The notes under the pieces: generated by a model | What the model saw: the letters and a program-made list of their open reading frames with translations, nothing else | Databases searched by the model: none | Told to the model about the DNA's origin: nothing | Position numbers and translations under genes: made by a program | Assembly (NCBI RefSeq): GCF_001997385.1 | Contig: NZ_CP019633.1 | Coordinates: 2,430,001-2,462,000 of the forward strand | Direction: 5' to 3' | From: Sedimentisphaera cyanobacteriorum | GTDB lineage: Bacteria; Planctomycetota; Phycisphaerae; Sedimentisphaerales; Sedimentisphaeraceae | Length of the DNA stretch: 32,000 nt | Part shown: positions 3,868 to 24,718 of the stretch, in pieces | How the letters are laid out: every line of letters starts with the position of its first letter | How positions within the stretch are numbered: position 1 is the stretch's first letter

Positions 3868-5490
3868 ATGTTTATACGAGTAAAGACATCAAAAAACAGT
3901 CCGAAGCAGTCGGTACAGATTGTAGAGAGTTATCGCAACGAGAAGAACCAGCCTCGTCAGCGTATAGTTCGTCATCTCGGCACAGCCTTCACAGAAGAAG
4001 AGCTTAAGCGGCTCAAGGATTTTGCCGAATTCGAGAAGGCCAAGCTTGAGGCCGAGAAAACGCCGGCACTTTTCAAGCCTGAGCATCTTGCAGAAGCTGC
4101 AATAGATGCCCGCAAAAACATTGATGATAAGCCTTTGCGGGTCAATCTAAAGAATCTCAGGGAACAGGCACGCATAACTACAGGCATCCATGAGGTATTC
4201 GGCAGCATCTACAATGAGCTTGGCTTTAACAATCTTTTCGATAGACGCAAAGAGTCTGCAGGCAAAAACCTTCGTCATATCACAATGGCAAGGCTTGCAA
4301 ACCCAGTGAGCAAACGCAGCAGCGTTCAGGATCTCTCCAAAGACTTCGGCATTAACCTTTCTTTAGACAGCGTTTACCGTATGATGGATAATATCACAGA
4401 TGATATTATCAGCAAGGCTCAAAACTGTGCTCACGGTGCTGCTAAAGGCCTTCTCGGCGAAGAGATAAGTCTTCTTTTCTACGACTGCACCACGCTTTAT
4501 TTTGAATCATTTACAGAAGATGAGCTCAAAAAGAACGGCTACAGCAAGGATATGAAGTTCAATCAGCCGCAGGTTGTCCTTGGTCTTCTGTCCACATCAG
4601 AAGGGCTTCCAGTAGGTTATGAGGTATTCCCCGGCAATCAGTATGAAGGGCATACGCTGCATACTGTAATCCCTAAGATCAAAGAGAAATACAACCTCAA
4701 GCGTGTTATCTTCACCGCAGACAGCGCAATGCTTAGCAAGGCTAATCTTGATTACCTTGAAAAGCAGGGAGTTGAGTATATTGTGGCAGCGAGGCTTAAA
4801 AGCCTCACTGATAAATGGAAAGCAAAGGTTACAGAATCCAATGCCCCGCTTAGAAGCTTTGATTACGGCAAAGATACAAGGCTTATTGTTACCTACAGCG
4901 ATAAACTCGCTAAAAAGAATAAGCACGACAGGGATGAAGCTATAAGAAAGCTCCAGGAGAAGCTTGAAAAGAGCAGCAACCCCAAATCACTTATAAGCAA
5001 CTACGGCTACAAGAAGTTTATGCGTGTTACCGGCGATATAGATTGCCGGATAGATGAAGAGAAATATGAAGAGGCTGCGAATTTTGATGGTCTTCACGGT
5101 GTTATAACGAATGTTAAGGATATGGATGATTCGGCTGTAGTAGATCATTACAGGCAGCTCTGGCTGATTGAAGAGTGCTTCAGGATAAGCAAGCACGATC
5201 TGAAGATACGGCCGATATACCACTGGACGCCGAAACGAATCAAAGCCCATATACTGATATGCTTTATCGCTCTAACCTGCGCGAGAAATCTGGCCTACAG
5301 GGTTCGGCTGAGATTTGAGCCGATGTCTGTGGCGAGGATTGTAAATTCGCTCAACCACGTGCAGCTGAGCATACTCTGGGATAAGAAAACAGAGTGCAGA
5401 TATGTCCTGCCATCAAAGATTAACGAGGACGCAAGAAAACTCTATAAAACAGTTAATCTCAGCACCAATACAACGCCTTACAAAATGTAA
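3868..5490 (+). CDS. IS1634-family DDE transposase
   Basis: The N-terminus MFIRVKTSKNSPKQSVQIVESYRNEKNQPRQRIVRHLG is typical of IS1634-type transposases. DDE-type blocks are LLFYDCTTLYFES, VIFTADSAMLS and WLIEECFRISKHDLKIRPIYHW. Confidence 0.9.
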   Translation: MFIRVKTSKNSPKQSVQIVESYRNEKNQPRQRIVRHLGTAFTEEELKRLKDFAEFEKAKLEAEKTPALFKPEHLAEAAIDARKNIDDKPLRVNLKNLREQARITTGIHEVFGSIYNELGFNNLFDRRKESAGKNLRHITMARLANPVSKRSSVQDLSKDFGINLSLDSVYRMMDNITDDIISKAQNCAHGAAKGLLGEEISLLFYDCTTLYFESFTEDELKKNGYSKDMKFNQPQVVLGLLSTSEGLPVGYEVFPGNQYEGHTLHTVIPKIKEKYNLKRVIFTADSAMLSKANLDYLEKQGVEYIVAARLKSLTDKWKAKVTESNAPLRSFDYGKDTRLIVTYSDKLAKKNKHDRDEAIRKLQEKLEKSSNPKSLISNYGYKKFMRVTGDIDCRIDEEKYEEAANFDGLHGVITNVKDMDDSAVVDHYRQLWLIEECFRISKHDLKIRPIYHWTPKRIKAHILICFIALTCARNLAYRVRLRFEPMSVARIVNSLNHVQLSILWDKKTECRYVLPSKINEDARKLYKTVNLSTNTTPYKM

Positions 5491-6931: not shown

Positions 6932-7026
6932 GTGATTCCTTCAAAAAACTAAAGTTGTATATGCATATTAAATTTCACAAACATCTCATAGAAGAGCAAA
7001 ATACAAGATGTTTCTTTAAAATCAGC

Positions 7027-7040
7027 GGGGTATGAGTTAC
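7027..7040 (+). repeat. Possible degenerate fifth copy of the motif (GGGGTATGAGTTAC)
   Basis: Shares GGGG...GTTAC with the motif, with a 2-nt longer centre. It sits 41 nt upstream of the IS4-like stub ATG, where a left IS end would be expected. Confidence 0.25.
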
Positions 7041-7080
7041 ACTAATTTTTCAGTCTAATTAAACAAATTAAGAGTAACCC

Positions 7081-7218
7081 ATGACACCCGCCAAACATCA
7101 ATATATAATTCTTAAGCAAATATGCAAACATTTTACCGCTCATCTTGTCTCAAAATTGTCTCACTCTTTCAAAATAGGGGACAGCATTTACGGACAGAGC
7201 CAGCGGTTCGCTGCTTAA
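7081..7218 (+). pseudogene. Possible N-terminal stub of an IS4-family transposase (only about 30-35 codons recognisable)
   Basis: My translation is MTPAKHQYIILKQICKHFTAHLVSKLSHSFKIGD... From memory, this resembles the conserved N-terminus (ILxQICxxIPxHLVxKLAxxHGVD) of IS4-type transposases common in PVC bacteria. Similarity stops at the motif copy at 7176, and a stop follows at 7216. Confidence 0.3.
7176..7184 (+). repeat. Copy B of the motif (truncated: AGGGGACAG)
   Basis: AAAATAGGGGACAG (7171..7184) forms a 13/14 direct repeat with AAAACAGGGGACAG (7348..7361). The two bracket the GC-rich island. Confidence 0.5.
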
Positions 7219-7352
7219 TAATGCAGCGTCGTACAGCGGTGTTCGCCGTGGCGGACCCGCTAGGATAGCGAAACGTGAAGAGCCGGCAGTAAGCGAAAAA
7301 TCTTTTCGAAAAGAATGCCAGCGGGCGACTTGCGTCGCGCCGCTGTAAAAAC
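7185..7352. ncRNA. GC-rich, stem-rich non-coding island (candidate structured RNA or mobile-element relic; strand unknown)
   Basis: Stops occur in all frames and GC rises sharply against AT-rich flanks. The long-range helix TACAGCGG (7232..7239) / CCGCTGTA (7340..7347) encloses a second helix, TCGCC..TGG (7243..7251) / CCA..GGCGA (7318..7328). Local hairpins are CGCTGC-N8-GCAGCG (7209..7228), CGCTA-GGA-TAGCG, CGAAAA-ATC-TTTTCG and GCGAC-TTGC-GTCGC. Confidence 0.3.
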
Positions 7353-7636
7353 AGGGGACAGTTACCTATTTTTAATAGTAAAAAGCTTTATAAAATAATG
7401 AGATAGGGAATTGGCCGGCATAAGAATTTGGTTGAGATGAGACGGCAAGTGGTTCGTCAAGAGCAGCTGCCGCTCAACAAGCATATTTGCTCGGTTTAAA
7501 GCCTTGGTGAAGCAATTACACAGAAAAAAACTGTCGAGTAAAAGCCTGTGAACAATCAGAAATTGGTTTTCTAAAAAATAATCAAAGAAGCTGAAAACTC
7601 ACATCAGTTGAAAACAATTATTGGTAACTGTCCCCT
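7353..7636. mobile_element. MITE-like 284-bp non-coding element bounded by perfect 14-bp inverted repeats
   Basis: AGGGGACAGTTACC at 7353..7366 and its exact reverse complement GGTAACTGTCCCCT at 7623..7636. The interior is AT-rich and has no ORF of note. Confidence 0.45.
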
Positions 7637-7643
7637 ATTAAAA

Positions 7644-12073: not shown

Positions 12074-12973
12074 ATGAAAGCTAATACAGACCAGCAGCTG
12101 CAAAAACAGCTTGATGCTGCTGCGAAAATAGTAAACCGGAGAATCAGCGAATATCTTGAAAATCGTGATGATATCCACCCGAAGCTCAAAGAAGCTGTGG
12201 TTTATGCCGCAAGCTCGCCGGGCAAGAGGCTTCGTGCAGCGGTTATTCAGATGGTTTGCAGGCTCTTCAGCGGCAGTATAAATCAGGATGCGGTTACCGC
12301 TGCGTGCAGTGTGGAGATGATGCATGCATATTCGCTTGTGCACGACGATCTACCCTGCATGGATGATGATGAGCTTCGAAGAGGCCAGCCTACAGTTCAT
12401 ATAAAATTTGGCGAAGCAGCGGCAGTTCTTGCGGGAGATGCCCTTCAGAGCCTTGCCTTCGAGATCCTTGCAAAAGAAATCAAGGACAGCAAAAAGGCTG
12501 TTAAGCTTATCGGTATTTTGAGCGGTTTCTCAGGCGCAGGCGGGATGATTTCCGGACAGGCAGCAGATATGGAAGCAGAAAACACGCGTGCAGGCATTGA
12601 AGAGGTGGAATATATCCACAATCACAAAACAGCAATGATGTTTGCGGCCTCAGCAGCGATGGGAGCTGTTTGCGGGGAAGGAAAATCTGAAGACATCCAT
12701 AATATGATGCAGTGGGGGATTTATGCGGGGCTTTGTTTTCAGGTGGCAGATGATCTGCTCGATGAAAGCTCTACTCCCGCTGAGCTCGGCAAATCCATCG
12801 GCAAAGACGCAAAGCAGGGAAAAGCGACATACCCATCGGCATCCGGCAAGGAGAAATCAGAAGAAAGGGCGAAGGCTCTTGCGTGCAAAGCAATAGAAAT
12901 CCTTGAAATATACGGCCAAAAATCAGACAATATGATAGGCCTTACTCAATTACTTTACGACAGAAAAAAATGA
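12074..12973 (+). CDS. ispA: Polyprenyl (farnesyl/geranylgeranyl) diphosphate synthase
   Basis: First Asp-rich motif LVHDDLPCMDDDELRRG and second Asp-rich motif FQVADDLLD. It overlaps dxs by ATGA, matching the conserved ispA-dxs pairing. Confidence 0.88.
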   Translation: MKANTDQQLQKQLDAAAKIVNRRISEYLENRDDIHPKLKEAVVYAASSPGKRLRAAVIQMVCRLFSGSINQDAVTAACSVEMMHAYSLVHDDLPCMDDDELRRGQPTVHIKFGEAAAVLAGDALQSLAFEILAKEIKDSKKAVKLIGILSGFSGAGGMISGQAADMEAENTRAGIEEVEYIHNHKTAMMFAASAAMGAVCGEGKSEDIHNMMQWGIYAGLCFQVADDLLDESSTPAELGKSIGKDAKQGKATYPSASGKEKSEERAKALACKAIEILEIYGQKSDNMIGLTQLLYDRKK

Positions 12974-14895
12974 ACGACAGAGAAACAGAAAAACAAACGC
13001 TGCTTGATAGAATAAACTCCCCTGAGGATCTCAAGCAGCTCTCAATACCTCAGCTCGGTGAACTGGCAGATCAGATCAGGGATTATATAATCAATGCAGT
13101 AAGCGATACTGGCGGGCATCTTGCGAGCAATTTAGGCGCAATAGAAGCCACTCTCGCAATGCATTACGTATTCAATTTTTCCAAAGACTACCTGCTCTGG
13201 GATGTTGGGCATCAGTGCTACGCCCACAAAATTATAACAGGCAGGAAAGACAAATTCAGCCTGCTGCGCAAGGAGGGAGGCGTCAGCGGTTTTCCAGAGC
13301 CGTCCGAGAGCAGATACGACCGCTTCCGCGTGGGGCATGCGGGCACTTCCATAGCCACGGGGCTCGGCATCGGCTGGGGGCTTCTCGATCAGAACAGAGA
13401 TGATAAGGTGGTTTCCTTTGTGGGAGACGGGAGCATTGTAAACGGGGCATCATTCGAGGCTCTGAACAATCTGACCGGCCTGCCAAGGCAGATGCTCGTT
13501 GTGCTCAACGATAACAATATGAGCATCGACGTTACAAGAGGCGCTGTAGCCAAGATATTCTCCAAAATCCGCCTGAACAGCACATACGAAGAACTGAACA
13601 GAACTGCCAAGAATATAATAGAGCATATGCCGCTGATTGGCAAGCAGGTTGAGGAGGCTGTTCAGAGGCTCAAGAAGGCTATCAGGATGCAGCAAAGCGC
13701 CGGGCAGATCTTCGAAAGCCTTAATCTTTCATATTTCGGCCCTGTAAACGGCCACGATATCGGCTCGCTTATTGAGCTGTTCACCGCCCTGAAAGACCTC
13801 GACCACCCTGCGGTTCTTCATATTTACACAAACAAAGGCAAAGGCTATAAACCCGCTGGAGATAATCCCTCAAAATATCATTCCACAGGCCCTTTTTACA
13901 TAAACGGCGAATCGAAGAAATCCGGCAAAAAGAGCTACACGAAGATAATTGGCGAAACACTTTGCGAGATAGCAGCAGAGAAGCAATCCAACATTACCGC
14001 TGTAACAGCAGCTATGCCCGAGGGCACAGGGCTCAATACCTTTCGCGACCATTTTCCTGATAAATACTACGATGTGGGTATATGCGAGAGCGCTGCTGTA
14101 GATATGGCAGCGGGGATGGCCAAAACCGGCCTAACGCCTTTTGTATGCCTGTACTCCACATTCCTCCAGAGGGCCTTCGACCAAATTGCACACGATGTGG
14201 CTCAGCAGAATCTGCATGTTGTATTCTGCATAGACAGGGCTGGGGTTGTGGGCGATGACGGCCCGACTCACCACGGTATGCTAGATATCGGTATGCTCAG
14301 GATGCTGCCTAATATGATACTCTGCGCTCCGGCCTGCGGAGAAGAGCTAAGGCTCGCCCTTATGTATGCAGCGCAAAGGAAAGCCCCTATTGCAATACGC
14401 TACCCGCGGGATGTTCTGCCGGAAAATCTAAGCGGCATAGAAAGCCTGAGTTCAGATTTCATAACCGGCAAGAGCGTTTTAGTCTCGCAGGGCGATGCTG
14501 ATATTGCTCTGGTTTGCTACGGTGCAGTGCTCACAGAGGCTGTGGAAGCGGCAAAGCAGCTCGAAGAGAGCGGCGTTCGGTGCGATGTGGTGAATGCGAG
14601 ATTCGCCAAACCGATAGATGAACAGATCGTTGAGCTTGCAAGAGAGGGGAAAACGGTTTTCTGCCTTGAAGACCACGGGACGGCGGGCGGTTTCTGCTCG
14701 GCTGTGCTGGAGGAGCTTTCGAAGGCGGGCGTTTCTTCTGAAAACGTATTCTGCCTTGCAGCGCCGGATGAATATATAGACAAGGCCTCGAGAAAAACGC
14801 AGCTTGAAAGATGCAATGTAGGCAGCGAACATATCTGCAGAGAGGTTCAGGCAAGGATAAAAGACCGCGATTTGTATGAAAAAGCACATACCTAA
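12970..14895 (+). CDS. dxs: 1-deoxy-D-xylulose-5-phosphate synthase
   Basis: 641 aa. It has GGHLASNLG, the WDVGHQCYAHKIITGR block, the ThDP motif GDGSIVNGASFEALNN and a transketolase-like C-terminal half. Confidence 0.95.
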   Translation: MNDRETEKQTLLDRINSPEDLKQLSIPQLGELADQIRDYIINAVSDTGGHLASNLGAIEATLAMHYVFNFSKDYLLWDVGHQCYAHKIITGRKDKFSLLRKEGGVSGFPEPSESRYDRFRVGHAGTSIATGLGIGWGLLDQNRDDKVVSFVGDGSIVNGASFEALNNLTGLPRQMLVVLNDNNMSIDVTRGAVAKIFSKIRLNSTYEELNRTAKNIIEHMPLIGKQVEEAVQRLKKAIRMQQSAGQIFESLNLSYFGPVNGHDIGSLIELFTALKDLDHPAVLHIYTNKGKGYKPAGDNPSKYHSTGPFYINGESKKSGKKSYTKIIGETLCEIAAEKQSNITAVTAAMPEGTGLNTFRDHFPDKYYDVGICESAAVDMAAGMAKTGLTPFVCLYSTFLQRAFDQIAHDVAQQNLHVVFCIDRAGVVGDDGPTHHGMLDIGMLRMLPNMILCAPACGEELRLALMYAAQRKAPIAIRYPRDVLPENLSGIESLSSDFITGKSVLVSQGDADIALVCYGAVLTEAVEAAKQLEESGVRCDVVNARFAKPIDEQIVELAREGKTVFCLEDHGTAGGFCSAVLEELSKAGVSSENVFCLAAPDEYIDKASRKTQLERCNVGSEHICREVQARIKDRDLYEKAHT

Positions 14896-15487
14896 CATAC
14901 TCACAATTTCCCGAATAGCGCTCACTTTCGTGCTGTTTGCAATATTGCTGACTATAGACTCATCAAACGGGAGTCTGTATTTCTGGTGCTTTGTCTTCTT
15001 CGCTGTTATCTCGGCCACAGACTTTCTCGACGGCTTTCTCGCTCGAAGATGGAAGGTGGAATCAAGGTTTGGGAGGGTGGCAGACCCGTTTGCTGATAAG
15101 ATTTTTATAGCAGGCTGCTTTTTAATTTTCGCATTCGAGCAGATACCAGTAATGGAGAATTTACCTGCAGCAGCAGGGGAAGTGATAAGATGGGGCCTTG
15201 CAGCTGTAATACTGCTTAGAGAATCCGCTGTTACTATTGTAAGGCAGATAGCCGAGAAAAAGGGCTTCGATTTCTCCGCTTCGCAGTTCGGGAAGGTTAA
15301 GATGTTCTCTCAGTGCGTGCTTGGGGCTTATGTGCTGGTGCATTCAGCTTTCTTCGCAGGCTCAGCGGTTTCAGACTGGCTGCTGGCAGCTGGTTTCATT
15401 TTTACTGCCGTTGCCACAGCTGGTTCAGGGATCGAAGCCGCAATACGCCTCTACAAGGCATACAAAAATCAGCACACCCCAGCCTGA
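14876..15487 (+). CDS. pgsA: CDP-alcohol phosphatidyltransferase (phosphatidylglycerophosphate synthase-like)
   Basis: The motif DFLDGFLARRWKVESRFGRVADPFADK fits D-x2-DG-x2-AR-x8-G-x3-D-x3-D. There are multiple hydrophobic segments. The gene overlaps the dxs 3' end by 20 nt. Confidence 0.85.
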   Translation: MKKHIPNILTISRIALTFVLFAILLTIDSSNGSLYFWCFVFFAVISATDFLDGFLARRWKVESRFGRVADPFADKIFIAGCFLIFAFEQIPVMENLPAAAGEVIRWGLAAVILLRESAVTIVRQIAEKKGFDFSASQFGKVKMFSQCVLGAYVLVHSAFFAGSAVSDWLLAAGFIFTAVATAGSGIEAAIRLYKAYKNQHTPA

Positions 15488-15562
15488 GAATTACGCATCT
15501 GAAAGCTTCCTGTTGACCTGTTGAAAAAAATTAAGTAATTTTTTATGCAGGAAGAGATAAAT

Positions 15563-15571
15563 TGTTATAAT
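15563..15571 (+). promoter_or_regulatory. Extended -10 promoter element (TGTTATAAT) for the ATPase/DUF4276 cassette
   Basis: TGnTATAAT lies at 15563..15571 in a very AT-rich spacer, about 60 nt upstream of ATG 15631. A GGAAGG ribosome-binding-like element sits 9 nt before the ATG. Confidence 0.45.
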
Positions 15572-15630
15572 TTGGATGTCTCTATTTAATAATTTATAAA
15601 AAAAAAGCAGCCAATGGAAGGTGTTTTTAC

Positions 15631-16743
15631 ATGGGGCAGCAATTAGATAAATTAACAATAAGAGGATTCAAGTCTATAAGTCAGCTCGAAGATTTCGAGC
15701 TTGGAAATCTCAACGTCCTCATCGGAGCTAACGGGGCTGGCAAGAGTAATTTTGTGGAAATTTTTCGTGTCGTCCGAGCAATGGCAGAAGAAAATTTTGC
15801 CAACTACATTCAAACCAGAGCAACTGCAGATGATTATATGTTTGGCGGTCCGAAAACAACTGAAAAAATAGAAGCTGAATTTGTTTTTGGTGATAATTCT
15901 TATGCCTTAGAGCTCGAGCCAACAGCAAATGGTGAAGAATTTGTAATAATTAACGAATGGCAGAGATATAAAGAAAACAACTGGAGATGTATAGGTTCAG
16001 GCGGCAGGGAAAGCGCTTTAGCTGCTAACAAGAACGAGCGGGCTGTAACAAATCCTAACATCTCGGGAGTTGGCTATTACATATACGAAGCAGTTTCAAA
16101 TTGGGTTGTTTATCATTTTCACGATACAAGCGCAAAATCCCCAATGAGAAGATTTGAAATAACGGCTGATAACAGCAGACTCAGGCCTGACGCAGCAAAT
16201 ATTGCCCCTTTCCTTCTTGGTTTGCGGGAAAACAATGGGCGGTGTTATAAGGAGATAATAGAAGCAGTTAGGATTGTAATTCCTTTCTTTGACGATTTCA
16301 TTCTCAAACCTGTTTACAAAGGCGAAAAGGAAGTTGTCAATCTAAGCTGGAAATAGAAAGGCTCTGATTACCCCATGCAGCCCTATCACCTCTCCGACGG
16401 TTCTATAAGATTCATCTGCCTTGCCGCAGCTTTGCTCCAGCCGGAACCGCCTGCTGCAATTTTGATTGATGAACCTGAATTAGGTATGCACCCCTTTGCG
16501 ATTGGAATTATTGCAGAGATGATGAATTCTGCTTCAAAGCAAACGCAGGTTATTGTGTCCACTCAATCCCCCCACCTGATAGATAATTTCTCGGCAGAGG
16601 ATATCGTAGTTGTAAACCGTGATAAAGGGGCTTCAACTTTCGAAAGGCTCAGCAAGGAAGAGCTCGCAGGCTGGCTGGAAGAATATTCTTTAGGAGAGCT
16701 TTGGAGAAAAAATGTGATACAGGGAGGCCCCCGGTATGAATAA
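15631..16743 (+). pseudogene. ABC/AAA-type ATPase (AAA_15/21/23-like, OLD/AriA-style N-terminal ATPase fold) interrupted by one in-frame TAG at 16354..16356
   Basis: Track ORFs 15631..16356 and 16375..16743 are in the same frame and together make 370 codons. Walker A (LIGANGAGKSN) is in the first piece. The signature-like LSDGSIRF, Walker B (AILIDEPELGMHP) and the TQSPHLID switch are in the second piece. Confidence 0.8.
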
Positions 16744-17413
16744 CACCACTGTTTATGCTGTTGTGGAAGGTCAGACTGAGCAGGCTTTTGTAGATAATGT
16801 TTTAGCTCCGTATCTGGGACATTTCAATGTTTTCATATATGCCAGACTGATTGGCAAACCAGGCCATAAAGGCGGAAACGTCCGGTTTGAAAGAGTTAGG
16901 AAAGATATTGAACATTTTCTCAAGCAAAGAAGGGATACTTATATAACGACAATGTTTGATTATTTTAGGCTCCCTTACGATTGGCCGGGCAGAGGTGAGA
17001 TGCCGGCTAACCTTTCAACGGAAGAAAAGGCAAATCGAATTGAACAGGCAGCATTAAAAGAATTAAAACGTTTATTCCCTGAACACAACCCAGAAGCAAG
17101 ATTAATCCCTTATATTCAAATGCATGAATTTGAAGCACTGTTATTCAGTGATATTTCGATTCTGTCTGATGGATTGGGTATTCAGAACTGTGAAATAGAA
17201 CGCATATTAAATGAGTGCGGCGGGCATGAAGAGATAAATGAAGGTATAGAGACAGCTCCATCAAAGCGTCTGGAAAGGCTCTGCTTGAGGTATAACAAAG
17301 TTGTTAAGGGCAAATCAATATCCGAACAGACAGGGTTAGAGACAATCCGGAAAAGATGTCCGCACTTTGACAGCTGGCTGAGGCGTATGGAAAAACTGGC
17401 ACGGCAAAAATAA
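16736..17413 (+). CDS. DUF4276-family protein (predicted TOPRIM-like effector partner of the ATPase)
   Basis: The N-terminus TVYAVVEGQTEQAFVDNVLAPYLG matches my recollection of the DUF4276 start pattern (hhVEGxTEexFV). There is a later acidic block, MHEFEALLFSD. The start overlaps the ATPase stop by 8 nt (ATGAATAA), which suggests translational coupling. Confidence 0.7.
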   Translation: MNNTTVYAVVEGQTEQAFVDNVLAPYLGHFNVFIYARLIGKPGHKGGNVRFERVRKDIEHFLKQRRDTYITTMFDYFRLPYDWPGRGEMPANLSTEEKANRIEQAALKELKRLFPEHNPEARLIPYIQMHEFEALLFSDISILSDGLGIQNCEIERILNECGGHEEINEGIETAPSKRLERLCLRYNKVVKGKSISEQTGLETIRKRCPHFDSWLRRMEKLARQK

Positions 17414-17436
17414 AACGGAGTTAAAGGCGGCAGTTC

Positions 17437-17469
17437 TCAGCTCACAGCCTCCGGGCAGCTGATTTTTTT
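17437..17469 (+). terminator. Rho-independent terminator after the cassette
   Basis: TCAGCT(caca)GCC-tccg-GGCAGCTGA forms a hairpin that is followed directly by a T7 run (17463..17469). Confidence 0.6.
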
Positions 17470-17545
17470 ATGGAAATCACCCGCTGATTTGATAAGATTT
17501 TCATTCCCGAAAATATGACCGGAAAATAAAGCTCAGAGGAAGTAA

Positions 17546-18811
17546 ATGATTGATATAAAGCTTATTAGAGAAAATCCTGAACACTTTAAGAAGGCTGCTG
17601 CGAATAAGAAGTTTGATGTGGATATAGACAGGCTCGTCGAGCTTGATGAACTTATCCGCAAAACGAAGACGAATATGCAGGAGCTTACTGCTGAGAAAAA
17701 CAGGATAGGCAAACAGATACCGAAGCTCGATGCTGGAGAGAAGCAGGAGGCAATCGGCAAGCTCTCAGAGATAAAGGAATCCGAAGCGGGCTATCAGGAA
17801 AAGCTAAAAGAGCTCCAGCCTGAATTCGAAAGGCTGATGCTGCTTGTCCCGCAGCCGCCGGATGAGGATGTACCGGTAGGCGAGGACGACAGCGAAAACG
17901 TGGAGCTGCGTGTTGAAGGTGCTTTGCCGGAATTCGATTTCGAACCAAAAGACCACGTTGAGCTGGGCAAGGCGCTTGATATAATAGATCTCGAGAGGGG
18001 CGTTAAGCTCGCAGGCACCAGAAACTACTTCCTCAAGGGCGATGGAGCCCTTCTGCACTGGGCTGTGCTGAGGTTTTCTCTGGATTATATGATCAGTCAG
18101 GGCTACAAGCCAATGTGCGTACCTCTTCTTATGCGAGAGGAGGCAATGCGCGGCACGGGCTACTTCCCGGGCGCAGAGGAACAGACATATATGCTCGAGC
18201 GTGATGAGCTGAGCCTCGCGGGTACGGCGGAGGTTCCGCTAACGGCCTACCGCTCCGGCGAGATACTCTCCGAGGATGAGCTGCCGCTGAAATACTGCGC
18301 AATGAGCAGCTGTTTTCGTCGTGAGGCCGGAGCCGCGGGCAAAGACACACACGGGCTCTACCGCATCCATCAGTTCGAGAAGGTTGAGCAGGTGGTAATC
18401 TGCAGGAATGATGAGGCTGAAAGCCGCAAATTCCACGATGAAATCCTTGCCAACTCTGAGGGCGTTATGAAAGCCCTCGGCATACCATACCGCGTGGTGA
18501 GCGTTTGCACGGGCGATCTGGGCAAAGGGCAGGTTGAGAAGTACGACATTGAAAGCTGGATGCCCTCAAGAAACAGCTACGGCGAAACGCATTCTGCAAG
18601 CCGGTTCTACGAATTTCAGGCACGCAGGATGAACCTGAGATACAAGGATTCAAACAAGAAAAACGTATTCTGCCATACGCTGAACAACACCGTAATTGCT
18701 TCGCCGAGAGTGCTTATCCCGCTCATGGAGCTCAATCAGAACCCCGACGGCACAATCACAATACCCGAGCCCCTGAGAGCATATATGGGAGGCAGAGAAA
18801 AGATAGGCTGA
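17546..18811 (+). CDS. serS: Serine--tRNA ligase
   Basis: 421 aa. It has an N-terminal coiled-coil arm (MIDIKLIRENPE...) and class II motifs including FRREAGAAGKDTHGLYRIHQFEKVE and TLNNTVIASPRVLIPLMEL. Confidence 0.95.
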   Translation: MIDIKLIRENPEHFKKAAANKKFDVDIDRLVELDELIRKTKTNMQELTAEKNRIGKQIPKLDAGEKQEAIGKLSEIKESEAGYQEKLKELQPEFERLMLLVPQPPDEDVPVGEDDSENVELRVEGALPEFDFEPKDHVELGKALDIIDLERGVKLAGTRNYFLKGDGALLHWAVLRFSLDYMISQGYKPMCVPLLMREEAMRGTGYFPGAEEQTYMLERDELSLAGTAEVPLTAYRSGEILSEDELPLKYCAMSSCFRREAGAAGKDTHGLYRIHQFEKVEQVVICRNDEAESRKFHDEILANSEGVMKALGIPYRVVSVCTGDLGKGQVEKYDIESWMPSRNSYGETHSASRFYEFQARRMNLRYKDSNKKNVFCHTLNNTVIASPRVLIPLMELNQNPDGTITIPEPLRAYMGGREKIG

Positions 18812-23317: not shown

Positions 23318-24718
23318 TTATTCTTCAGGTTTATTCTTGCTTTTCTTTTTTCTTTTCGTTCTTGGCTTTTTGGCCTTATTCTCAGCCTCTTCGAGGAAGG
23401 CTTTTCTTCTTAGGATGTGGTGGTAGTGCTGGGCGAATCTGTGCGATTCATCACGGATATACTGGAAAAGCTTTCTTACAGGCGAATTTGCCGGCAAGCG
23501 AAGAGGCCTGTCTTTCCCCGATATGTAAATGAGCTCTTCCTTTTTTGCAAGCGAGGCGAGGTAGGGTTTTTGCCCCTCAAACTCATCGAGCACATTCTCC
23601 ACTGCATGCAGCTGGCCGAGGCCGCCGTCGATCAGCAGCATATCAGGCAGAAGCTCGCGGCCGTCCATCGCACGTTTATACCTTCGCCTTATCACCTCCT
23701 GCATTGAGGCGTAGTCGTCTATGCCTTCCACGGTTTTGATCTTGAATCTGCGGTAGCCGTGTTTGAAGGGGCTGCCGTCGATGAATTTAACCAGCGAGCC
23801 CACCGTTTCCGAACCGCCCAGATGAGCGATATCAAAGCCTTCGATAGTTCTTATCGGGTCTGCCGAGCCCAGCATCTCGGCGAGCTTTTGGTTTGCTGCT
23901 GAGAGGTTATGGACAAACAGCTCGGGCTGAACATTTTCGCTCACAGTTCCCCGGCTCTCAAGCTTTGAGATTAGGTTTATCTTATCGCGGTATTCAGCGG
24001 CCTCTTCAAAGCGCAGCCGTGAGGAAGCCTTCTGCATCTTGTCTTTGAGGTCTCTGAGGACAACGCTCCTTTTAGACCGGAGGAATTTTGTGAGCTCTTC
24101 GATTATCTCGCTGTACTCTTCCTTGTTTATCTTTGCAGCGCACGGAGCGGTGCATTGGTTTATGCTGTGCAGAAGGCAGGGACGGAAAAATCTGCGTTTT
24201 TCGTCGTCTGCAGATATCTCCAGCTTGCACGTTCTGAATTTGAATATCTTCTGAAGCAGCACTAAAACTCCCCTGAGCTCTCTGATTGCGGTAAACGGCC
24301 CGAATAGCCGGCAGCGTTTTTCACCCGGGTTGCGGGTTATGTAAACACCCGGGAAGTCTTCGTACGTGGTAATCTGGAGGTACGGGAAGGTTTTATCGTC
24401 CAGCAGGTTGGTATTGTAAGGCGGCCTTATATCCTTTATCAGCCGCGCTTCCTGAAGTATTGCGTCCACTTCGCTTTCTGTTTCAAGGCAGCTCACAGAG
24501 CATACCTGCTCAAGCATTTCTGCAATCTTCGGGCCTCGCGAGGAATAGATGTCGGAGCTGGGGAGAAAGTAGCTCGAAACTCTGGAACGCAGGTTTTTTG
24601 CCTTTCCGATATACAGCACGGCATCTTTGCTGTCTTTCATAAAGTACAGCCCGGGGGAGGCTGGGAACTGCCTTATCTTTTCGCGGATCTTTTCGATTTT
24701 GCCTTTATCTTCTGCCAT
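23318..24718 (-). CDS. uvrC: UvrC-like excinuclease subunit, short form (466 aa) lacking the C-terminal (HhH)2 domain
   Basis: GIY-YIG (GLYFMKDSKDAVLYIGKAKNLRSRVSSY), UVR domain (FEEAAEYRDKINLI) and RNase H-like endonuclease domain (IEGFDIAHLGGSETVGSLV...MLLIDGGLGQLHAV). The protein then ends in the lysine-rich tail NKAKKPRTKRKKKSKNKPEE. Confidence 0.82.
   Translation of the reverse strand: MAEDKGKIEKIREKIRQFPASPGLYFMKDSKDAVLYIGKAKNLRSRVSSYFLPSSDIYSSRGPKIAEMLEQVCSVSCLETESEVDAILQEARLIKDIRPPYNTNLLDDKTFPYLQITTYEDFPGVYITRNPGEKRCRLFGPFTAIRELRGVLVLLQKIFKFRTCKLEISADDEKRRFFRPCLLHSINQCTAPCAAKINKEEYSEIIEELTKFLRSKRSVVLRDLKDKMQKASSRLRFEEAAEYRDKINLISKLESRGTVSENVQPELFVHNLSAANQKLAEMLGSADPIRTIEGFDIAHLGGSETVGSLVKFIDGSPFKHGYRRFKIKTVEGIDDYASMQEVIRRRYKRAMDGRELLPDMLLIDGGLGQLHAVENVLDEFEGQKPYLASLAKKEELIYISGKDRPLRLPANSPVRKLFQYIRDESHRFAQHYHHILRRKAFLEEAENKAKKPRTKRKKKSKNKPEE

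Follow-up and report, generated by a model that had tools for sequence, protein, structure and literature searches.

A compositionally foreign HEC-01 cassette with a nonsense codon in its ATPase gene between pgsA and serS of Sedimentisphaera cyanobacteriorum

The window analyzed here, a stretch of 32,000 nt from Sedimentisphaera cyanobacteriorum (contig NZ_CP019633.1, positions 2,430,001 to 2,462,000), carries a two-gene cassette between a pgsA-like gene and serS. Gene 1 encodes an ATP-binding cassette (ABC) ATPase and is interrupted by an in-frame TAG codon; gene 2 encodes a small DUF4276 protein. Judged by the end-to-end profile matches of both proteins, the cassette is a member of HEC-01, a candidate anti-phage system cataloged in PADLOC-DB. 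The gap from the pgsA stop (position 15487) to the serS start (17546) is exactly 15488..17545, and the two genes lie inside it on the forward strand. An initial annotation, made from the letters of the window alone, had proposed a self-contained cassette filling this gap, and the coordinates, lengths, motifs, and ATGAATAA overlap that it gave for the two genes were all confirmed. The genes around the cassette (dxs, pgsA, serS, and comEC) are exclusively housekeeping genes. The features of the locus are collected in Table 1.

Gene 1 matched the PADLOC model HEC-01A (PDLC04175) with an E value of 7e-136 and 451 bits, and residues 3 to 367 of 370 were aligned to positions 4 to 362 of the 363-position profile; the TAG was read as X in this comparison. 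The other PADLOC models that matched gene 1 (mad3, AriA, AbiLi, Old, and PtuA) gave E values of 1e-16 to 1e-33 and were mostly partial. Pfam identified AAA_21 (2.3e-33) as well as AAA_15, SMC_N, and AAA_23. The open frame contains a Walker A motif (GANGAGKSN, residues 32 to 40), a signature motif (LSDGSIRF, 254 to 261), ILIDEPELGMHP (277 to 288), and TQSP (311 to 314), the core readings being LSDGS for the signature, ILIDEPE for Walker B, and TQSPH. Among 5.8 billion database proteins, P0001 was the nearest intact homolog (71% identity), and the ATPase structure was modeled on this proxy (pLDDT [predicted local distance difference test], 88.3). The model matched the heads of SMC, Rad50, and RecN and the defense ATPases PtuA, OLD (6p74), and GajA. 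By this model, gene 1 encodes an ABC ATPase of the generic SMC-head-like type that lacks a long coiled coil.

Gene 2 matched PADLOC HEC-01B (PDLC04188; 5.2e-76, residues 4 to 222) and Pfam DUF4276 (PF14103; 4.1e-52) over positions 1 to 192 of the 192-position profile, with 177.7 bits versus a gathering cutoff of 30.2, while no NCBIfam model matched it. The closest homolog in the same protein database was 58% identical. The Pfam results bear out both the DUF4276 assignment of gene 2 and the AAA_21/AAA_15/AAA_23 assignment of gene 1. An AlphaFold2 model built from a 60-sequence alignment (mean pLDDT, 83.1; predicted template modeling score, 0.80) has the order β1-α1-β2-α2-β3-α3-β4, after which the C-terminal half is helical. 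When the model was searched against the PDB with Foldseek, the top matches were the Toprim-containing C-terminal regions of the OLD proteins of B. pseudomallei and X. campestris (6nk8 and 6njv; probability, 1.00; TM score, 0.45 to 0.50; E value, 2e-3 to 3e-3), a moderate rather than a strong similarity, and GajA and the PARIS complex (rank 25) followed at lower ranks. The model places gene 2 in the Toprim-superfamily fold class, with a predicted three-layer α/β arrangement and four core strands. DUF4276 has been classed in the Toprim superfamily, and the DUF4276 domains of Menshen have their catalytic residues present (PMC12065111).

Several acidic residues of gene 2 are conserved. In the 60-sequence alignment, E15, D75, E131, and E133 never vary, and the conservation of E11 is 90% or higher. 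The VVEGQTE motif (residues 9 to 15) supplies the glutamate that follows strand 1 in a Toprim domain (E11 and E15), the invariant D75 stands directly after strand 3, and the invariant E131-x-E133, within HEFEALLFSD (residues 130 to 139), follows strand 4. Pfam, PADLOC, and the fold matches together agree with the initial placement of the pair, as an ABC ATPase with a small Toprim-like partner, in the architectural class of OLD, PARIS, and AbiL, and the structural comparison of the 225-residue protein led to the OLD Toprim regions ahead of the PARIS complex.

HEC-01, for Hma-embedded candidate 01, belongs to PADLOC-DB v2 and was published in 2024 (10.1101/2024.01.29.577857). Payne et al. described it as an ABC ATPase together with a Toprim-like protein embedded in Hma systems, and structure prediction indicated that HEC-01B and B. 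pseudomallei OLD have their metal site in common (10.1101/2024.01.29.577857). ATPases associated with DUF4276 also appear in the AAA15/21 ATPase tree of the PARIS study (PMC11464382). The pair can therefore no longer be called an undescribed variant, as had been suggested initially, and the accompanying statement that no experimentally characterized ATPase-DUF4276 system was known is superseded as well: HEC-01 has been challenged with phages twice, once with a null result and once with protection. The layout of the family is present in the window, with A upstream of B, adjacent, and on the same strand (+). The family description also has both genes intact, and here gene A carries the TAG at codon 242, which bears on function and not on ancestry. 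Neither Hma nor another defense system encloses the pair; embedding was the route by which HEC-01 was discovered and is not required for the call.

Codon 242 is Gln in 119/119 aligned ATPase homologs, within the highly conserved LSWKQKGSDYPMQPYH block, and this invariant Gln is flanked by the conserved WKQKGSDYPMQPYH block. Because of this invariance, the lesion is read as a single CAG-to-TAG (C-to-T) transition. The truncation takes away the signature motif, Walker B, the D-loop, and the H-loop, and the N-terminal fragment, which is the deposited product of gene 1 (AQQ10132.1, 241 aa), therefore cannot be a working ATPase. Since the stop falls on an invariant residue and the catalytic motifs are lost, the HEC-01 copy of S. 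cyanobacteriorum is most likely a recently inactivated pseudogene remnant that would have lost its function. Gene 2 starts within ATGAATAA, where it overlaps the end of gene 1, an arrangement that, by its sequence, is a translational coupling of gene 2 to gene 1. The stop, about 380 nt upstream, should weaken any coupling-dependent translation of gene 2. Reassignment or suppression of the stop codon was rejected, as TAG is the ordinary terminator of four other large open reading frames (ORFs) in the window, comEC among them, and no tRNA genes were found in the window. Near-invariant columns are altered at 5/102 positions of the ATPase, with the stop included (homolog median, 0), and at 3/49 positions of the DUF4276 protein. 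These changes amount to a mild excess, are conservative, and leave both genes otherwise nearly intact; the excess fits a recent relaxation of selection.

Table 1. Features at the cassette locus (positions in the window) and settings of related pairs on other contigs (MAG, metagenome-assembled genome)
Feature	Position	Strand	Remarks
pgsA-like, CDP-alcohol phosphatidyltransferase gene	14876..15487		Immediately 5′ of the cassette
Non-coding region 5′ of the cassette	15488..15630	+	AT-rich, 28% GC (0.28 vs 0.48 for the window); pgsA stop to gene 1 ATG
Extended -10-like element TGTTATAAT, candidate promoter	15563..15571	+	60 nt upstream of the ATG, from sequence
Gene 1, HEC-01A-type ABC ATPase, 370 codons, probable pseudogene with in-frame stop	15631..16743	+	PADLOC, Pfam
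In-frame TAG, codon 242 of gene 1	16354..16356	+	CAG-to-TAG at invariant Gln
Start/stop overlap of genes 1 and 2, ATGAATAA	16736..16743	+	8 nt, from sequence
Gene 2, HEC-01B-type DUF4276 protein, 225 aa, Toprim-like predicted nuclease	16736..17413	+	AQQ10134.1 (L21SP3_01960)
Hairpin + U7, candidate intrinsic terminator	17437..17469	+	Hairpin 17437..17462, 9 bp, 4-nt bulge
serS	17546..18811		Immediately 3′ of the cassette
L081 pair (Planctomycete MAG GCA_021371795.1)			Adjoins ileS
L083 pair			Adjoins integrase
L084 pair			Between coaBC and ptsP
Pair on contig carrying P0022			After AFOR gene
L085 pair			Among hydrolase genes

The base composition of the cassette sets it apart from its surroundings. 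The GC content at third codon positions (GC3) is 0.391 in gene 1 and 0.367 in gene 2 compared to 0.547±0.047 in 20 neighboring ORFs (z = -3.3 and -3.8, respectively), and the GC content of the cassette is 0.42 (0.36 to 0.45 in 500-nt windows), compared to 0.507 in dxs and a mean of 0.477 in the window. The initial annotation was right that the cassette is the poorer in GC, but it had put dxs near 0.60, and the contrast, most evident at third codon positions, is smaller than it stated. Among 80 serS-bearing relatives (22 with a SerS identity of at least 68%), pgsA, dxs, and the cassette were all absent within 7 kb upstream of serS. The serS-comEC order is often kept in these relatives, the content upstream of serS differs in each close one, and the junction upstream of serS may have served as a landing site repeatedly. 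From the pgsA side, no comparison with an empty site was available because a metagenome scan with PgsA yielded no relative above 38% identity. The GC3 values, the nearest homologs at only 71% and 58% identity, and the absence of the cassette upstream of serS in the 80 relatives are in keeping with the horizontal acquisition proposed initially, and the foreign composition and horizontal origin of the cassette are supported by these comparisons.

Two relatives have other genes at the serS-upstream junction. In the closest serS relative (79% identity; L001:5108-6690), the region upstream of serS contains an arsR-like regulator and an ORF resembling an ACR3-type arsenite transporter, their functions being judged from the translations alone; this is a third distinct cargo at the junction. 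In the Sedimentisphaeraceae MAG JB056 (L002:2016-6305), a different, defence-like cargo lies immediately upstream of serS and consists of an ORC-CDC6-like ATPase (Pfam, 1.4e-110), a protein matching the PADLOC model CARF6--CARF_CARF_CARF (1.6e-79), and a type II N6 DNA methyltransferase (4e-30).

HEC-01 pairs on other contigs show the same internal organization in variable surroundings. The ATPase gene lies immediately upstream of the DUF4276 gene in every context read. Pairs of close homologs were found on five contigs, alone each time and in five different neighborhoods (Table 1), and for each of the four contigs with available DNA (L081 and L083 to L085), the AT content of the cassette exceeds that of its flanks. 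The 8-nt overlap (ATGAnTAA or ATGAGTGA) is kept from Planctomycetes to Aeromonas and Desulfotalea; it occurs in L081, L083, L085, L087, and L088, and an overlap of 7 nt occurs in L089. The DUF4276 family comprises 3,491 representative clusters (50% identity, E ≤ 1e-3), almost all of them stand-alone proteins of about 220 to 230 aa. With tblastn, the DUF4276 protein was found on 13 plasmids and in 0/50,697 phage records, and IMG/VR gave one 30-residue fragment. On Aeromonas pHX3, the pair has a DNA methyltransferase gene on one side and a DEAD/DEAH helicase gene on the other and adjoins an "ATP-dependent endonuclease," which is an embedded defense context; on the small Acinetobacter plasmid pTR11_2, it directly follows vapBC, and on a Desulfotalea plasmid, it lies near traI. 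The association of homologous pairs with defense genes that had been raised initially thus applies to pHX3 and the VapBC plasmid, whereas the Planctomycete contexts are mostly housekeeping. Many genes of L084 (ENA ERZ25039527 contig_69070) are split, including those for TIM, guanylate kinase, glycogen synthase, and the DUF4276 protein; because this contig looks like a frameshift-prone long-read assembly, its broken HEC-01B is not regarded as a second natural pseudogene.

A candidate promoter and a candidate terminator are plausible from the sequence around the two genes. The element TGTTATAAT, which is present at the position given by the initial annotation, matches the extended -10 sequence perfectly but has no -35 element, and for lack of the latter, it was not listed by the consensus scan. 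In L081 (9933-9941), an extended -10-like TGGTATTAT stands, like TGTTATAAT in the window, at an offset of -68 from the ATG of the ATPase gene, which suggests that the promoter region travels with the cassette. A shared AGATAAAT precedes the extended -10-like element in both L081 and the window. The candidate terminator hairpin has a folding energy of -12.3 kcal/mol on its own (z = -3.1); when a 76-nt context is folded, the minimum-energy structure forms without it (z = -0.89), and the consensus terminator scan did not list it. An Rfam scan of the window returned zero structured-RNA matches. Flanking repeats were considered as scars of mobility and rejected: a 31-nt inverted repeat of 74% (15459-15489/17442-17472) is only at chance level, and a 22-nt direct repeat, D4, is also at chance expectation.

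Several features elsewhere in the window were recorded. The ispA-like, dxs, and pgsA-like genes are tightly packed, with overlaps of 4 nt (12970-12973) and 20 nt (14876-14895), which suggests a single operon ending where the foreign cassette starts. A DDE_Tnp_1 (IS4-type) transposase gene of 540 aa lies between dnaG and an esterase gene (3868-5490, +), and its low-GC flanks (∼0.39) suggest an insertion sequence element about 10 kb from the cassette. The stretch 6932-7643, with the esterase gene on one side and a 151-aa ORF upstream of argS on the other, extends over about 700 nt without an ORF of at least 60 aa on either strand and without an Rfam match. A UvrC-like ORF (23318-24718, -) is only 466 aa long; at E ≤ 1e-5, the UVR motif and the UvrC RNase H-like domain were its sole matches, the GIY-YIG and C-terminal HhH domains remaining unmatched. 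The ORF may represent a truncated or Cho-like variant, or the result may reflect the threshold or the start codon chosen.

Our interpretation builds on the family, the fold class, the conserved pairing and overlap, the mobility, the foreign composition, and the nonsense codon at an invariant residue, all of which we count as observed. The locus is probably a horizontally acquired HEC-01 cassette, an ATPase sensor/regulator with a coupled Toprim nuclease, that was recently inactivated by the CAG-to-TAG change. In an intact system, the SMC-head-like ABC ATPase HEC-01A would act as sensor and regulator, by analogy with PARIS, OLD, and Gabija, and would hold or otherwise control a metal-dependent Toprim nuclease, HEC-01B. 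Infection would activate HEC-01B, which would cut nucleic acid (DNA or tRNA) and so abort phage replication. Activation of the nuclease upon infection is an established property of PARIS and of the fused forms OLD and Gabija (PMC11464382; 10.1101/2024.01.29.577857). For the cassette, we infer a nuclease activity, a sensor-effector logic, an A-B complex, a trigger, and a defense role, as well as the loss of function of this copy. In the present copy, the change at codon 242 would truncate the ATPase and uncouple the translation of gene 2, leaving the system inactive. The initial proposal of an immunity module is supported insofar as the family is linked to anti-phage defense, whereas this copy has most likely been inactivated by the TAG at an invariant Gln, to which the initial annotation referred only briefly.

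A number of observations weigh against this interpretation. The locus lies outside any defense island, with housekeeping genes on both sides, and housekeeping genes also predominate in the five closest Planctomycete contexts. The link between gene 2 and Toprim is not significant at the level of sequence profiles, as neither Pfam Toprim nor a PDB sequence search gave a match, and an hhalign comparison with the Toprim domain of DnaG in the window, which aligned VVEGQTE to VLVEGYTD, reached a probability of 0.5%, not a significant value; for this reason, the Toprim assignment is drawn from the fold and the acidic constellation. Gene 2 has no literal copy of the canonical DxD, the residues after D75 being Y-F. 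The excess of substitutions may merely reflect the rank of this copy as the most divergent sequence in the set. We know of no HEC-01 system with a reported nuclease activity, substrate, or A-B complex. An HEC-01 representative gave no protection against a panel of E. coli phages (10.1101/2024.01.29.577857), while E. coli B with a cold-seep representative was reportedly protected from at least one phage among T4, T5, and T7 (10.1101/2024.09.26.614923). Given the null result of Payne et al., the defense role of the family therefore derives from context and one positive report.

Another explanation for the state of the copy is that the cassette still functions and the TAG is an assembly error, is read through, or is bypassed by re-initiation at Met249 and reassembly of a split ATPase. 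The TAG is known from a single assembly with no independent check, and look-ups of the exact proteins (the N-terminal ATPase fragment and gene 2) gave no independent assembly. It is the only lesion; all catalytic motifs of both genes are otherwise intact, and the copy would therefore be functional if the stop were erroneous or read through. An in-frame ATG (16375, Met249) is also available 19 nt downstream of the stop. We nevertheless regard a functional cassette as unlikely. The assembly is a finished one of 2.95 Mb from an isolate, in which a substitution error would be uncommon, other genes use TAG as a normal stop, and the window holds no suppressor tRNA. Met249 is ancestral (117/119 homologs) rather than a start that has newly arisen, and no obvious ribosome-binding site accompanies it. 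The N-terminal fragment is devoid of Walker B and the signature motif; the mild excess of changes at conserved columns also argues against function. It is quite unlikely, too, that the pair is primarily a selfish addiction or stabilization module, similar to toxin-antitoxin (TA) systems, in which the ATPase restrains a Toprim nuclease toxin and the unit spreads on plasmids and islands. Such a module would fit the Pfam label of AAA_21 ("putative AbiEii toxin, Type IV TA system" domain), the 13 plasmids, with pairs adjoining VapBC and a relaxase, the stand-alone cassettes among housekeeping genes, the 0/50,697 phage records carrying the pair, and the failure to protect in Payne et al. It agrees less well with the protection conferred by one HEC-01 representative, the embedding of a pair in a methylase-helicase defense locus beside an OLD-like endonuclease, and the defensive nature of the ATPase-Toprim architecture in PARIS, OLD, and Gabija, and abortive-infection and TA roles can coexist. 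Extremely unlikely is a native housekeeping ATPase for DNA repair or chromosome maintenance (RecF/SMC-like) with an accessory protein, although one source names the homolog P0036 "recombinase RecF," Pfam reports SMC_N and weak RecF matches, and the SMC, Rad50, and RecN heads are among the best folds. The TIGR RecF model gave 23 bits versus a cutoff of 172, far below the strength of the PADLOC HEC-01 matches; the distribution is patchy, the composition foreign, the position variable, and plasmid carriage documented; and here the gene bears a nonsense mutation that is tolerated. A RecF/SMC housekeeping role is effectively refuted by the distribution and by the curated cutoffs.

With the inactivated HEC-01 cassette as the preferred reading, the locus reveals no new kind of system but adds a new and broken member to a candidate family already known. 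HEC-01 is widespread, yet the data on phage protection conflict. From a cultured Planctomycete, the window adds a clean case of a copy that stands alone, is foreign in composition, and was probably inactivated by one point mutation. The copy is of mild use as a natural loss-of-function allele, as a construct that can be repaired for tests, and as evidence for the mobility of a unit of about 2 kb. Two bolder extensions are, taken together, improbable. The HEC-01 of Planctomycetes may be a minimal cassette of about 2 kb, from promoter to terminator and without a recombinase of its own, that lands between unrelated housekeeping genes, as may be read from five close homologs at five sites that are AT-richer than their flanks. 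If true, travel as such a cassette would be an unrecognized route of defense-gene mobility and the serS-upstream junction a recurrent landing pad. The nonsense change in the ATPase gene, for its part, may record selection against an autoimmune or costly system, and the orphan Toprim nuclease may still act.

Compared with known systems, the pair resembles AbiL and RloA-RloB in joining an ATPase to a small Toprim-superfamily partner, and gene 1 has a weak AbiLi match (2.6e-22). RloB has been classed as Toprim together with DUF4276 (PMC12065111), but gene 2 has no RloB or AbiLii match, and the pair does not lie within a type I restriction-modification locus. The likeness to Mad3/Mad4 of MADS is that Mad4 is a DUF4276 homolog (PMC12065111) and that gene 1 matches the mad3 models (PADLOC, 2.3e-33; NCBIfam, 1.9e-28); however, the NCBIfam MAD3 equivalog NF047739 reached 99.8 bits versus a cutoff of 420, and neither a methyltransferase gene nor other mad genes adjoin the cassette. 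OLD and Gabija GajA share the folds, OLD Toprim regions being the best matches of gene 2 and OLD (6p74) and GajA being matched by the ATPase proxy. Their ATPase and Toprim domains are fused in one polypeptide, whereas two genes encode them here; the PADLOC Old model covers only about 65 residues of gene 1 (276-339; 1.8e-20), and a GajB-like helicase partner is absent beside the cassette.

PARIS, which consists of the ABC ATPase AriA and the DUF4435 Toprim nuclease AriB (PMC11464382), shares the adjacent pairing of a separate ATPase with a small Toprim effector and is the best-understood model for such a pair, in that its ATPase scaffold frees the nuclease upon sensing a trigger (PMC11464382). 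The effector in the window is a DUF4276 and not a DUF4435 protein, and gene 2 matched PADLOC HEC-01B and Pfam DUF4276 only, without an AriB match. On gene 1, the PADLOC AriA model (PDLC02980) gave 6.1e-33 versus 7e-136 for HEC-01A, the PDB sequence match to AriA was weak (3.8e-4 over about 70 residues), and the ATPase is much smaller, at 370 aa versus about 464 aa in deposited AriA chains. From HEC-01 as described, the present copy differs in being unembedded, alone between pgsA and serS, in the premature stop of its ATPase gene, and in coming from a Planctomycete clade whose cassettes are AT-rich relative to their hosts. It shares with HEC-01 the order of an ABC ATPase gene followed by a Toprim-like DUF4276 gene, the full-length matches to both models, and the conservation of the predicted Toprim metal-site residues.

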